64,000 bases of DNA, from positions 192,001 to 256,000 of IMG/VR virus record IMGVR_UViG_2061766007_000586; one strand, written 5' to 3'. Under the pieces are notes generated by a model. It made no database searches, was not told the origin of the DNA, and saw nothing but the letters and a program-made list of their open reading frames with translations. The stretch comes from a virus (taxonomy: Duplodnaviria; Caudoviricetes). Below are positions 37,679 through 45,514 of the stretch, in pieces. Every line of letters starts with the position of its first letter. Within the stretch, counting starts at the first letter, position 1. A program made the position numbers and the translations under genes.

Positions 37679-39160
37679 TTAACCAACCGTGATCTTTGCA
37701 TAACGTTCTGCGTTCAGAACGTTAAGCATCATCTCGATTGGCGTATCGGTGATGGCTCTCATCACATTCTTGAAGGATGAAACGGCTTGGCCCGAGCAGC
37801 AGATAGCACCCTTCCTGTCTTTATCGACGTGGAAGGTATCGTGCCTTGACTCTACGTTCCAGAATACGATACCAGGAATCTGGTATCCTTCTTCTTCGAA
37901 ACGTTTCTTGAGAGAATCATAGAACACCCAGTCAGTGTAGCGAGTACCTTCATCGATTTCCATATCGGAAATGATGATGATAGCCTTCGGCATATCTTCT
38001 GGAGCAACATGATGCTCTGTTGCGATCTTGAGAATCTTCTCAAACGCAGCTTCCAGATTTGTCGAACCACCCCAATCATTAGTATTGATACTTTGGAGTT
38101 TCTGAGCGAGCGTCTGACCCTTCAGGTGATGAAGAGTACAGTTCGAAGAGAACGACATCCACAGGTCCTTATAAGGACCTACGTTACGTTCGGCAAAGTA
38201 AATTGCCAAACCAACTGCAGATGCCATAGGACGACCAGCCATACTTCCCGAAGTATCGGCGATTACGATTGCAGACGAATTGCCTACAACGTAGTTCGGA
38301 AGGGACTTCCACTGACCTTCGACGATAGGATCTTCTTCGAAAGTGACCCCATTCCAATCCCATCTTCTTCCTATGTACTTTTCCACAAGATTGTACGGAT
38401 ACAGAGTACCAGCATTGATCTTGGCAGTACCGGCTGTGAGATTCTTGAGATAATCGAAGAAACGATCTCCATCGTGTTTCGGAAATGCCATCTTGTAGCG
38501 AAGCATGGCATGACTCGGAACAGCTTCGTAGTTGATTTCGTTCCAAGTACCATTCGACATGTGTGTTTCCACAATGTTGATGTACTTCCTCAAGCCACGA
38601 AGAAGACGCTTGAACATGCGTACTTCCATTCCGAACTTCAGGGCAGTCATGATGCCAAGTTTACGGGTCTCTTTGGAAGATCCGTCTGGAGTTTTAATCC
38701 ACTTGGCAAGAAGACTTACCGGCTTGTTCTGTCCCATGGCTTCAAGATCAGCCACGAACTGCTTCTTCATCGAAACCCACATATCGTCCTCTAAAGGAGT
38801 TCCGATCAGTGTGTATAAGTCGTCATAACGACCATACTCACCAATCAGATCGATATTGGGTCTGATACATTCCGGGTAGTGCTGGGCAGCATACTTCAGA
38901 ATCTGACGGAATGATTTCCTCTCACCGAGGCCTTCTCTTACATCACGACTGTAAAAGAGGCATCTCGTGGCGAGAAGTTTGTCCTCTGCATAGGCGTCAG
39001 AGAACAGACGTTCGATGCGGGTCTGCTCCGTGTTACGAAGAGCACCGCAGACACTGAAAAAGTCCAGAACTTTACTACCTGTCGTGTTAAGACAGGTAGC
39101 TCCATTTTCGGTGCGAGAGTGGGTTGCTTCCTTTGCGAAAGCGTTTGCAAATGTTGTCAT
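37679..39160 (-). CDS. DUF2828-family Ro60/TROVE-like protein with C-terminal vWA domain
   Basis: TENGA, LDFF, RDVREGLGER, YGRYDDL and LLAKW helical region; vWA MIDAS DTSGSM, WGGSTN, ISDMEID and IVFWNV. Start MTTFANAF after AAAGGAG. Confidence 0.85.
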   Translation of the reverse strand: MTTFANAFAKEATHSRTENGATCLNTTGSKVLDFFSVCGALRNTEQTRIERLFSDAYAEDKLLATRCLFYSRDVREGLGERKSFRQILKYAAQHYPECIRPNIDLIGEYGRYDDLYTLIGTPLEDDMWVSMKKQFVADLEAMGQNKPVSLLAKWIKTPDGSSKETRKLGIMTALKFGMEVRMFKRLLRGLRKYINIVETHMSNGTWNEINYEAVPSHAMLRYKMAFPKHDGDRFFDYLKNLTAGTAKINAGTLYPYNLVEKYIGRRWDWNGVTFEEDPIVEGQWKSLPNYVVGNSSAIVIADTSGSMAGRPMASAVGLAIYFAERNVGPYKDLWMSFSSNCTLHHLKGQTLAQKLQSINTNDWGGSTNLEAAFEKILKIATEHHVAPEDMPKAIIIISDMEIDEGTRYTDWVFYDSLKKRFEEEGYQIPGIVFWNVESRHDTFHVDKDRKGAICCSGQAVSSFKNVMRAITDTPIEMMLNVLNAERYAKITVG

Positions 39161-39174
39161 AATAAAGCTCCTTT

Positions 39175-39234
39175 CATGACACGTTAAATGCATAAATTTG
39201 CAGTTTATGAAATTGGGTTTGCTGTTAGCGTCAC
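39175..39234 (-). ncRNA. ACAGCAA-module element a (abuts the DUF2828 RBS)
   Basis: TGACGC-TAACAGCAAA...CATAAA-CTGCAAA-TTTATG...GTGTCATG. Confidence 0.7.
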
Positions 39235-39244
39235 ATTCACTAAA

Positions 39245-39302
39245 CAGGACACGGAATAATAACTAAAAAGTAATTATTTGATTGATTTGCTGGATGTGCC
39301 CC
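39245..39302 (-). ncRNA. ACAGCAA-module element b
   Basis: GGGCAC-ATCCAGCAAA...AT-rich hairpin...GTGTCCTG. Confidence 0.65.
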
Positions 39303-39327
39303 AATGGTGATAAAGGATCTAAAGAAA

Positions 39328-39579
39328 TAGAAAGAGTAGGATTGGATACCTACATTTCAGCTTGAGGATTGCTTTTTGTTCGAAGTTGCAATCTTACTTC
39401 ACCTAGTTAATCTTCTTGGCGATGGCGCAATACTTACTTTCGCGTAAGCATGCAGTTACACTAGAATTTAATAATAGATAAAGTTTTGTTTGCTGTAAAT
39501 GCCACATACATGACATTCTTCCAAACTTTGTTCTAGTTGATTTACATCTCTATAAATCAACTTATTGAACTATCTTTCT
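39328..39579 (-). ncRNA. 252-nt tRNA-derived RNA c with D-loop, anticodon-arm (ACAGCAA module) and variable-arm insertions
   Basis: Acceptor AGAAAGA/TCTTTCT, D-stem GTTC/GAAC, stem AAAGTTT/AAACTTT enclosing AATGTCAT..GTGGCATT-TACAGCAAA, T-stem GTAGG/CCTAC. Confidence 0.7.
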
Positions 39580-39593
39580 AAAATACGAAAAGA

Positions 39594-39707
39594 TGAGCAG
39601 AGTAGGACTCGAACCTACATTCCGAGATTACTAATCTAAGTATCTTGCAGTTAATGACCTGAGAAGGACATATTTTTACGTGTTCTCTCCTGTTGAACTA
39701 TCTGCTC
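39594..39707 (-). ncRNA. tRNA-like RNA d (AGT anticodon) with a 41-nt module insertion (39638-39678)
   Basis: Removing the insert restores CGAGA-TTAGTAA-TCTCG and a 73-nt cloverleaf with TTCGAGT T-loop; no encoded CCA. Confidence 0.75.
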
Positions 39708-39718
39708 GTAAAGTGAAA

Positions 39719-39766
39719 CAGGACGCATTGATCATTTATTGATGATAAATTGCTGTGAGCGTCCCA
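39719..39766 (-). ncRNA. ACAGCAA-module element e
   Basis: GGGACGC-TCACAGCAA-TTT-ATCAT/ATGAT-CAAT-GCGTCCTG. Confidence 0.7.
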
Positions 39767-39771
39767 GAAAA

Positions 39772-39906
39772 TGGTGGAGAGGGTAGGATTTTCACCTACA
39801 CATAGAAGTCCATTGATCTATTTAATTAAAAATAAATTTGCGGCGAGTGTCACACTGCAACATGACACCACATAAATACTTCTTGCTCTAATTGAGCTAC
39901 CTCTCC
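39772..39906 (-). ncRNA. tRNA-like RNA f with the module replacing the anticodon loop
   Basis: GGAGAGG/CCTCTCC-ACCA, D-arm GCTC/GAGC, AGAAGT/ACTTCT enclosing GTGTCATG..TGTGACAC-TCGCCGCAAA. Confidence 0.75.
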
Positions 39907-39954
39907 AAAAGGTACAGTAGAGATATATATAATCGTAATTTATTTGAGTTAAAA

Positions 39955-40031
39955 TGGTACACCAGACGGGGTTCGAACCCATGACCCTCTGCTTAGAAGG
40001 CAGATGCTCTATCCTACTGAGCTACTGGTGC
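39955..40031 (-). tRNA. tRNA-Arg(TCT)
   Basis: CT-TCT-AA loop, ACCA end. Confidence 0.95.
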
Positions 40032-40513
40032 ACATTATCTGATTCTAATGGAGACCTTACGGTTTGTTCAAGTTTAGTGAAAAACAATACTTCAAAACCT
40101 ATTATACCATTTGCGTTTAACCAATCTGCTACTAAATGTCTATGACAAAATTCCATAGGTTTTTCATAGCAAATTAAACATGGTTGTTTTCCGTCAGTTT
40201 TTTCAAGCAATTCTGACATAACTTGTTTTGGATCTAGTTTACCTAAAATTTCTTCATTGAAGCGTTTTGTGTAAATTTCATTATCGTGGTGGTTGAATTT
40301 CCAATCACTGTAAATACTCCAGGAAGGTGCTAGTTTTTTATACTGAATCCCAGAATACCAATCAGGTGCTTTACCACAGATAGAGACAGGAACTATAGAA
40401 CCAGGCATGTTTAGAATATCATTAAGTTTAGCAAAATATGAAGTTCTAAACTCTTGCCATTGAATTTCTTTCCCATTTATAGTAAGTGGCCATATAGGTT
40501 GTAAGTTTGACAT
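40022..40513 (-). CDS. DUF488-family protein
   Basis: TSYFAK, LAPSW and CLICYEKPMEFCHRHLVADWL; likely start MSNLQ; stop codon lies within the 5' end of tRNA-Arg. Confidence 0.8.
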   Translation of the reverse strand: MSNLQPIWPLTINGKEIQWQEFRTSYFAKLNDILNMPGSIVPVSICGKAPDWYSGIQYKKLAPSWSIYSDWKFNHHDNEIYTKRFNEEILGKLDPKQVMSELLEKTDGKQPCLICYEKPMEFCHRHLVADWLNANGIIGFEVLFFTKLEQTVRSPLESDNVHQ

Positions 40514-40530
40514 TTTGATTTTCCTTAAAA

Positions 40531-40604
40531 TGGTAGTCCCGTCGGGATTTGAACCCAAACTAACTGGACCAAAACCAGTTGTGCTGCCATTACACCACAG
40601 GACT
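40531..40604 (-). tRNA. tRNA-Gln(TTG)
   Basis: TT-TTG-GT loop, ACCA end. Confidence 0.92.
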
Positions 40605-45410: not shown

Positions 45411-45514
45411 AAGAACGTCTCCTATAATAGTTAGAGTTAAGTTAGATTATAATAGTTATATATAAATTAAAAAAATTCATATACATTATCTAATGAACTT
45501 AACTGGAGGTACTT

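Follow-up and report, generated by a model that had tools for sequence, protein, structure and literature searches.

What are the small, partly tRNA-like RNAs encoded in front of a DUF2828 gene in a phage genome, and what does the protein made from that gene do with them? The window analyzed here is a stretch of 64,000 nucleotides, bases 192001-256000 of the 318,604-bp virus record IMGVR_UViG_2061766007_000586, which CheckV rates as complete. Between a tRNA-Arg gene (39955-40031) and the DUF2828 start codon at 39160 lie six elements and no credible open reading frame (ORF), and a seventh copy, element g, sits elsewhere in the window. Ro60 and its Y RNAs form a classic RNA-surveillance particle, and Ro60 is a human autoantigen; proteins of this family carry Y RNA on the outside of the ring and misfolded RNA in its central hole. 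Comparative evidence from sequence and predicted structure makes it likely that the six upstream RNAs and g are cognate RNA partners of the DUF2828 ring, in a phage ribonucleoprotein analogous to Ro60/Rsr-Y RNA.

On the minus strand, the order is a promoter-like box, elements f, e, d, c, b and a, and then the DUF2828-vWA gene (Table 1). All six elements lie within 750 nt upstream of the gene and on its strand. A first-pass annotation had marked them as tRNA-derived RNAs of a candidate new ribonucleoprotein system, and their positions, strand and lack of coding capacity hold. The start codon at 39160 stands behind the ribosome-binding site AAAGGAG, which the 3' strand of element a directly abuts. 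An extension of the gene to an ATG at 39193 was judged spurious, and the 39160 start is preferred.

Table 1. Features of the DUF2828 locus and the distant seventh copy, in window coordinates; R1 and R2 are covariance models of the closed and hairpin forms of the shared handle.
Feature	Position	Strand	Evidence or remark
Promoter-like box TTATATATATC	39922-39932	-	16 nt upstream of element f
Element f, tRNA-shaped: acceptor stem, D arm, T arm, encoded CCA	39772-39906	-	Rfam tRNA 42.3 bits
Element e, 48-nt closed mini-RNA, 3' ..CCUG	39719-39766	-	R1 41.8 bits, E 1.3e-9
Element d, tRNA-shaped	39594-39707	-	Sequence and fold; acceptor GAGCAGA/UCUGCUC, T arm GUAGG-UUCGAGU-CCUAC
Element c, 252-nt tRNA-shaped RNA	39328-39579	-	R2 38.2 bits, E 2e-6
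Element b, 59-nt closed mini-RNA	39245-39303	-	R1 32.5 bits, E 6e-7
Element a, 61-nt closed mini-RNA with anticodon-arm mimic	39175-39235	-	R1 40.6 bits, E 2.9e-9
DUF2828 + DUF7788 (vWA) gene, 493 aa	37679-39160	-	PF11443 3e-38, PF25043 4e-39
Intrinsic-terminator-like hairpin, 13 bp then UCUUUUAUUU	37637-37668	-	11 nt after stop codon
Element g, seventh copy, tRNA-shaped with encoded CCA	31437-31551	-	Rfam tRNA 47.2 bits

Structural comparison connects the protein to Ro60. Its AlphaFold model (pLDDT 83.5) has Ro60 (1yvr) as the top Foldseek match (E 1.9e-7), and VIA-align against 2i91_A gives a Z of 20.5 with 408 residues aligned at an rmsd of 4.1 Å. The next structural matches are human Ro60, the Ro60 of phage phiLo and Deinococcus Rsr; unrelated matches cover the vWA domain only, at Z 11.7 or lower. 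The MIDAS motif (DTSGS...T...D) is intact, with DTSGS at 302-306, T367 and D399, and is invariant in 23 homologues. The predicted structure is that of a full-length Ro60 fold, a HEAT-like helical-repeat ring plus vWA domain, in line with the earlier proposal of a Ro60-like protein. Sequence searches give a different picture: Pfam shows no match to TROVE (PF05731) at E<=0.01, and a profile search of PDB sequences returned no Ro60, so that fold comparison alone revealed it. The protein belongs to PHROG 850, 'RNA-binding protein' (2.7e-124), and has weak vWA matches besides. By fold, the protein would be expected to work like Ro60; by sequence, it stands outside the TROVE family.

DUF2828 proteins are widespread: 710 phage records contain a homologue, and the clustered homologues number more than 7,000. 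Some homologues carry the annotation 'Ro-like RNA binding protein'. The Felixounavirus homologues share about 31% identity with the window protein. The phage genome holds one DUF2828 gene above the cut-off. Outside the window, at phage positions 287517-287729 on the minus strand, a weak DUF2828-like match (26.6 bits, below the cut-off) falls in a 363-aa frame, which may be a divergent DUF2828 paralogue.

All seven RNA copies carry the same module, here called the handle: a 7-bp helix, two nucleotides, and ACAGCAA or a variant differing at one or two bases. Two covariance models describe it, R1 for the closed form (41 sequences) and R2 for the hairpin form (36 sequences), both built from other genomes with no window sequence. 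The source loci comprised 5 phage records, 80 IMG/VR loci and 80 bacterial DUF2828 loci; a single-protein scan of viral contigs found nothing, and an alignment-based scan succeeded in finding the 80 IMG/VR loci. At E<0.01, R1 picks out a, b and e alone, both in the 64-kb window and in the whole 318,604-bp genome. R2 is significant for c, f and g, with no other match genome-wide. The uncatalogued ACAGCAA handle is recognized by score in a, b and e through R1 and in c, f and g through R2, and d falls short of the R2 score.

In its consensus, the handle has a helix of 7 bp, then 2 nt and A-C-N-G-C-A-A, with A prevailing at N. At the motif-distal end of the helix, all closed (41/41) and all hairpin (36/36) seeds have a G.U pair; the pair next to it alternates between U-A and G-C, and the inner pairs vary freely with compensation. 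In the closed form, this helix joins the two ends of a mini-RNA. Element e pairs GGGACGC with GCGUCCU over 7 bp, followed by UC, ACAGCAA and a small hairpin. Element b pairs GGGGCAC with GUGUCCU and continues with AU and CCAGCAA; an RNA contig from a related strain turns the G.U pair into A-U (39299 C>T). Element a has the helix GUGACGC/GUGUCAU, then UA and ACAGCAA, and encloses an arm with a 6-bp stem and the loop CUGCAAA, whose 'anticodon' is GCA.

The remaining elements are shaped like tRNAs. Acceptor stem, D arm and a T arm of the form GUAGG...CCUAC are present in each of c, d and f, with the hairpin and motif at the anticodon-arm position; in these and in g the parts keep the normal tRNA order of acceptor, D arm, insert, T arm and acceptor. 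In f, the anticodon loop gives way to a 69-nt insert, which holds an AU hairpin besides the hairpin handle at 39837-39869 (motif variant GCCGCAA); R2 scores f at 23.0 bits (E 0.004). Element c has an extra hairpin in its D loop, a handle of canonical hairpin type at 39489-39517 and a further insert of about 130 nt, in a fold closed by AGAAAGA/UCUUUCU. Element g lies inside the tRNA array, 8 kb away from the gene-adjacent six. Its anticodon arm is replaced by a 54-nt insert with GUAUCCG-UCU-CGGAUAC-UA-ACAGCAA and a 3-bp arm with the loop CUGAUAA (R2 at 31491-31518: 21.9 bits, E 0.007).

Element d is a degenerate member, assigned on anatomy alone. Its handle at 39644-39672 contains one U.U mismatch and the motif ACUGCAA, followed by a 3-bp arm with the loop UUAGUAA. 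It is the weakest of the set, with no call by ARAGORN or Rfam, neither of which calls c as a tRNA either. The first-pass annotation had also described a stem-loop after the motif in five elements, of anticodon type in d and a. The hairpins of b, e and f are indeed present, but they are AU-rich and not anticodon-like. A convincing anticodon-type arm follows the motif in element a only; the stems of d and g are just 3 bp long.

The two forms of the handle are related in a simple way. Circularly permuting the end-closing form (a, b, e) gives exactly the hairpin form (c, d, f, g), because the hairpin consensus ..RUCAU-GUUU-GUGAY..NN-ACAGCAA joins the 3' end of the closed form (..UCAUG) to its 5' end (UGUGA..) through a small loop. 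This confirms the permutation that had been suggested for c, d and f. The same symmetry appears where two closed elements meet: the junction of the 3' strand of b with the 5' strand of a scores 17.4 bits on R2.

Covariation supports the helix, as the earlier reading had anticipated. Pairs that change on both sides make up 5/7 of the helix in the R1 seeds and 6/7 in the R2 seeds, and the covariation scores are 0.51 and 0.70 compared with 0.16 and 0.23 in shuffles, with seed helices that are 100% paired by construction, having been chosen for pairing. Because of that selection, an end-anchored test was used as well, in which all three variable positions are paired in 45 of 58 unique modules, compared with a mean of 16.7 and a maximum of 26 in shuffles. 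The bare heptamer ACAGCAA is not enriched across the window (17 found, 10 expected), so it is the complete module that counts as evidence.

Loci L102 and L104, the closest relatives that could be retrieved (62% and 65% protein identity), repeat the arrangement: a TATATAT box, f, e, an unrelated stretch, c, b, a and the gene. Their closed elements score 38-51 bits on R1, and their stems differ from those of the window by compensatory changes, such as GGGGCAC/GUGUCCU versus GGGAUAC/GUAUCCU. In the orthologues of e at both loci, a G-C pair has become A-U. Both relatives keep the whole of element c, whose D-loop hairpin, T stem and one inner hairpin show compensatory changes. The f orthologue in L102 has the canonical handle GUGUCAU-GUUU-GUGACAU-UU-ACAGCAA, and the GCCGCAA of the window's element f is accordingly a drifted copy. 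Two further features of these relatives stand by themselves. At L104 1890-1976, an f orthologue is cut off after the D arm and fused to an e-type closed handle, as if handles had recombined. In the place of d, at L102 2528-2545 and L104 1978-1998, there is a ribosome-binding site with a two-codon frame, ATG ACG TAG, conserved in both.

Beyond these relatives, the handle follows the DUF2828 gene. The 72 full-length IMG/VR loci together contain 141 copies of ACAGCAA in the 250 nt preceding the gene and 60 in the next 250 nt upstream, exclusively on the gene's strand, over a background of about 2-4 per bin. In 45 bacterial loci, 67 closed and 21 hairpin modules fall within 500 nt upstream, and other bins hold 0-8. 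An even sample of 151 Lachnospiraceae genomes includes 19 with DUF2828. A whole-genome R1 search of the sample, insensitive because only 34 candidates were scored per genome under strict filters, matched 2 of the 19 DUF2828-positive and 1 of the 132 DUF2828-negative genomes and was replaced by unfiltered searches of gene flanks. Covering 91 kb around 15 Lachnospiraceae DUF2828 genes, the unfiltered search gave 13 matches at E<=0.05. All 13, at 11 loci, lie 50-450 nt upstream on the gene's strand; the other four loci have no R1 match.

More distant genomes show the same association, as expected if the motif belongs to the DUF2828 clade. Beside the gene and on its strand, R1 finds five matches in and after the tRNA array of Bacillus phage Nate, three downstream of the gene in mycobacteriophage LeBron, and further matches in Campylobacter phage F352, Listeria phage WIL-1, Enterococcus phage VRE9_1 and, downstream of the gene, Staphylococcus phage S-CoN_Ph1. 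In Diplocloster hominis, all four matches in the 6.1-Mb genome lie within 1.2 kb upstream of the gene, and the last ends 19 nt before it. Canonical TROVE genes behave differently: 50 kb around seven of them from Bacillota contains no R1 match at E<=1, and two of the seven loci have YrlA-like matches instead. The specificity of R1 for DUF2828 flanks over this TROVE control is significant (Fisher p = 0.004).

A separate arrangement occurs in Sarcina sp. DSM 11001 (L185-L187; contigs C21, C58 and C69 of G003). This genome has seven strong handle RNAs (33-44 bits) inside large tRNA arrays of about 12-29 tRNAs per 7-8.5 kb. The contigs that carry them differ from those of its two DUF2828 genes, whose flanks are without a match.

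Such tRNA surroundings raise an alternative in which the RNAs act alone, as tRNA-derived decoys, processing punctuation or regulators, and lie close to DUF2828 because both belong to a shared tRNA/RNA-metabolism module. The tRNA-derived nature of the elements fits this idea, as does their position in or beside tRNA arrays in the window, Nate, VRE9_1, F352 and Sarcina. We consider it unlikely. A bacterial genome of 6.1 Mb that keeps its sole four matches just upstream of DUF2828, and 11 of 15 Lachnospiraceae loci whose sole matches in about 6 kb lie 50-450 nt before the gene and on its strand, argue for a closer tie. The handle itself, in which a conserved heptamer stands single-stranded next to a helix whose G.U pair never varies, resembles a protein-recognition site, and stem-plus-strand RNA elements are known ligands of Ro60-fold proteins.

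The closeness to the gene also suggests that the elements could be mainly cis-acting leaders of the DUF2828 mRNA, with the protein or a host factor binding its own 5' untranslated region to control translation or stability. Modules mostly lie within 500 nt upstream on the gene's strand, the last one ends at the ribosome-binding site here and in L001, L002, L102 and L104, and a single RNA contig joins array and gene. As the main role, this seems improbable: the RNAs of S-CoN_Ph1 and LeBron are downstream of the gene, the Sarcina handles occupy contigs without DUF2828 genes, and element g is 8 kb away. A leader also has no need for many diversified copies with tRNA bodies, CCA ends and mimics of anticodon and T arms. 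The leader and partner-RNA roles are mutually compatible.

It is very unlikely that the four tRNA-shaped elements are intron-bearing decoding tRNAs or tRNA pseudogenes in decay and that the three closed minis are unrelated spacers: f and g do exceed the Rfam tRNA threshold and both encode CCA, but their 69- and 54-nt inserts replace the whole anticodon arm and so leave no standard anticodon stem (the RF00005 cloverleaf, with its anticodon stem and 7-nt loop, is absent from both despite the passing score), no intron family in Rfam matches the array, the inserts share a conserved, covarying handle with the non-tRNA minis, and the long element c is not decaying, because it is conserved with compensatory changes.

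Several observations weigh against the reading of these RNAs as partners of the DUF2828 protein. In Vibrio phage K575, Sinorhizobium phage phiN3, Roseburia hominis An869 and Sarcina locus L174, R1 has no significant match closer than 3 kb to the gene, and the matches in E. coli phage HY02 (Felixounavirus) are weak (E 0.2-0.4). Most loci are interrelated, coming from rumen and gut Bacillota phages and their hosts, so independent events are fewer than the counts suggest. With R2, element d stays below significance (8.4 bits, E 5.8), and it has no counterpart at the matching position in L102 or L104. The position of element a against the ribosome-binding site would also fit a leader or autoregulatory role. 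No RtcB gene was found anywhere in the phage genome, so an RNA-repair setting is not evident in this phage. Contigs from RNA libraries, which cover the array, may stem from contaminating DNA and do not show ends or strand; they cannot prove transcription and count as supporting evidence only.

As such support, four metatranscriptome studies yielded contigs over the array, among them 39178-39561, 39243-39592 and 39156-39686, which agrees with the transcription that the first-pass annotation presupposed. One RNA-library contig of 2,883 nt spans array and gene, from 39912 to about 37030, the latter end being extrapolated from its length and falling at the 3' end of a tRNA-Glu gene. Its first base, 6 nt ahead of element f and 10 nt past the TATATAT box, hints weakly at a start site, and the contig continues through the strong terminator-like hairpin behind the gene. 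Cover is patchy in some RNA runs, and contig ends other than 39912 disagree between studies; no weight is placed on either.

A promoter-like motif had been noted earlier near 39920. The box follows a pattern, KTATATATWWC, of which the window has four copies, each of them on the minus strand (31731-31741, 32416-32426, 39922-39932 and 45455-45465); 0.73 would be expected. Of these, one is 10 nt upstream of tRNA-Cys and another 16 nt upstream of element f, and the arrays of L102 and L104 have a TATATAT box at the equivalent place. A sigma-70 promoter scan found nothing above chance and nothing at 39920. Taken from its distribution, KTATATATWWC is probably a phage-specific promoter.

Together, these data describe an RNA family that is real, conserved, probably expressed and linked to a clade of Ro60-fold proteins. 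The ribonucleoprotein reading appears well supported by comparative evidence. Linkage, covariation and the predicted Ro60 fold also favor the earlier suggestion that the handle RNAs are a distinct class of Y-RNA analogues belonging to the DUF2828 clade.

A possible mechanism begins with the phage promoter TTATATATATC, which would drive a single transcript of f-e-d-c-b-a and the DUF2828 mRNA; the contig from 39912 to about 37030 hints weakly at such a product. Host RNase P and RNase Z could then excise f, d and c, a step suggested by the acceptor stems, T arms and encoded CCA, and the short e, b and a would be freed between them. The ring is predicted to bind the shared handle, with its 7-bp helix, invariant distal G.U pair, 2 nt and single-stranded ACNGCAA, because of the strict co-location, the covariation and the Ro60 fold. 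The variable parts, whether they mimic an anticodon arm or a T arm or form an entire tRNA-like body, would thereby be displayed to host factors. Their purpose might be to engage host enzymes that act on tRNA or other RNA, as a decoy or tether during infection. Decoy and repair roles of the RNAs are speculation. The one functional datum comes from a likely homologue, Bas63 gp130, which counters the 'ppl' defence (10.1101/2024.10.10.617714).

The interiors of the RNAs show how such displays may vary. Among 380 distinct closed-form interiors, 168 have a hairpin with a tRNA-type 7-nt loop compared with 37 in shuffles, counts that are inflated by the kinship of the loci. These loops are either T loops (UUCGAAU, UUCAAAU) or anticodon-like, and the commonest anticodon-like types are GUU (Asn), UUU/CUU (Lys), GCU/GGA (Ser) and GCA (Cys). 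The post-motif arm of element a is of this last type.

The genome around the locus has a G+C content of 36% in the window, and the phage sequence is present in DNA and RNA runs from bovine and sheep gut. The nearest protein relatives (52-57% identity) come from Lachnospiraceae genomes of rumen and gut. Given this occurrence and these relatives, the source is a giant phage, with rumen Bacillota as the probable host. Its tRNA array runs on the minus strand from about 21.9 to 40.6 kb of the window, with 16 ARAGORN tRNAs and small genes interspersed. Minus-strand genes among the tRNAs near the locus encode a DUF488-N3a 'active subclade' protein (40022-40558), a cytidylyltransferase-like protein (37106-37642; PHROG: heptose-phosphate adenylyltransferase type), an HNH endonuclease (36461-36934) and a Methyltransf_24 methyltransferase (35628-36206). 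At 32500-32589, also on the minus strand, ARAGORN calls a tRNA-Ser with the unusual anticodon ACT (wobble A).

These findings indicate a second, much larger Ro60-like clade with its own uncatalogued RNA class. They offer a concrete partner candidate for a widespread 'domain of unknown function', and the RNA signature is simple and searchable, with modular displays of tRNA parts. The handle may also explain many unannotated spacers in phage tRNA arrays, suggest a testable mechanism for the reported Bas63 gp130-ppl counter-defence phenotype, and provide a clue to the so far unexplained Dictyostelium Class I RNAs. To our knowledge, bacterial and phage versions of the Ro60-Y RNA particle have been known for the TROVE clade alone, with YrlA-type RNAs.

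Among known systems, one of the closest is Bas63 gp130 of a Felix O1-type coliphage, which has a Ro60 fold, and the authors of the PhageMaP preprint guess that some of the 'tRNA genes' beside it are Y RNAs (10.1101/2024.10.10.617714). Gp130 is likely a DUF2828 homologue. It resembles the window's system in its phage-encoded Ro60 fold and adjacent tRNA cluster, and the preprint gives no RNA motif, family or structure. That guess and the 'Ro-like RNA binding protein' annotations are partial prior art. No Rfam family or paper describing ACAGCAA-handle RNAs was found, and the papers found to name DUF2828 were not relevant.

A second comparison leads to eukaryotes. RF01414 is the sole non-tRNA Rfam family that repeatedly matches the closed minis, at 19.8 bits for b, 19.6 for e, and 23.7 and 23.6 for relatives at L002, all below its gathering score of 41.5; the novelty claimed in the first-pass annotation is therefore not removed by any strong match. 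The Class I RNAs of this family have a terminal stem, the 11-nt motif CCUUACAGCAA, a variable interior and a CUGU end, within 42-65 nt (Kjellin et al. 2021, PMC7919456). They are transcribed from a DUSE promoter, have the RRM protein Rnp1A as a partner and are reported as unique to Dictyostelia (PMC7919456). The published definition is a striking parallel: both kinds of RNA have ..CUUACAGCAA directly after the 5' strand, a covarying stem that joins the ends, and a 3' ..CUG(U). The closed elements e and b share with Class I the stem, the ACAGCAA core and the ..CCUG-U ends, and the window minis are 48-61 nt long.

There are differences as well. The four positions before ACAGCAA differ, and the register is 7 bp plus 2 nt in the handle but 6 bp plus 3 nt in Class I. 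Class I genes are eukaryotic and have a DUSE promoter of their own, whereas the window comes from a phage of rumen bacteria. The likeness to RF01414 is treated as resemblance rather than membership, and we consider it unlikely that the two form one family. If they did, the Class I RNAs would serve a Ro60-like (DUF2828-type) protein as Y-RNA-like partners, and the system would span viruses, bacteria and eukaryotes, possibly spread by viruses.

A third comparison is with Ro60/Rsr and YrlA. YrlA RNAs occur beside TROVE-annotated genes, including those of 22 phages, and have the motif GNCGAAN0-1G and a permuted tRNA domain (Chen et al. 2014, PMC4201824). The Ro60 of Thermus phage phiLo binds two upstream Y-like RNAs with a CGAA motif (Yrl1/Yrl2) and host PNPase (PMC12135203). 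The window protein differs from these in lacking a TROVE Pfam match and in its 10-16% identity to solved Ro60s. Its RNAs have a 7-bp helix, 2 nt and ACNGCAA, whereas YrlA and phiLo RNAs have GNCGAA, CGAA or a bulged GGUCCGA helix. They also differ from YrlA in their two circularly permuted handle forms and in arrays of up to six or seven diversified copies. The models for known Y RNAs agree with this separation: RF02553 (gathering score 69 bits) has no match at E<=10 in 39050-40100 and none at gathering score window-wide, RF00019 (Y_RNA) has none in the window, and GNCGAA and GGTCCGA are absent from 39161-39935 and element g.

Polarity is a less general distinction. The tRNA-shaped elements of the window keep the normal tRNA order, as first noted, in contrast to the permuted tRNA domain of YrlA (T arm, acceptor-like stem-loop, D arm), but this order does not define the family, since a handle RNA of LeBron has a YrlA-like permuted domain. 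The middle R1 match of this phage is also a sub-threshold RF02553 match at 39.8 bits. At LeBron L005 4544-4652, the stem GGACUC/GAGUCC is followed by UAGCAGCAA and encloses that permuted domain, bridging both RNA classes. Against these differences stand the features that the DUF2828 system has in common with Ro60/Rsr and YrlA: a helical-repeat ring with a vWA domain and MIDAS motif, small structured RNAs encoded beside the gene and on its strand, and tRNA-derived or tRNA-mimicking RNAs in which a helix with a conserved short strand is the presumed protein site.

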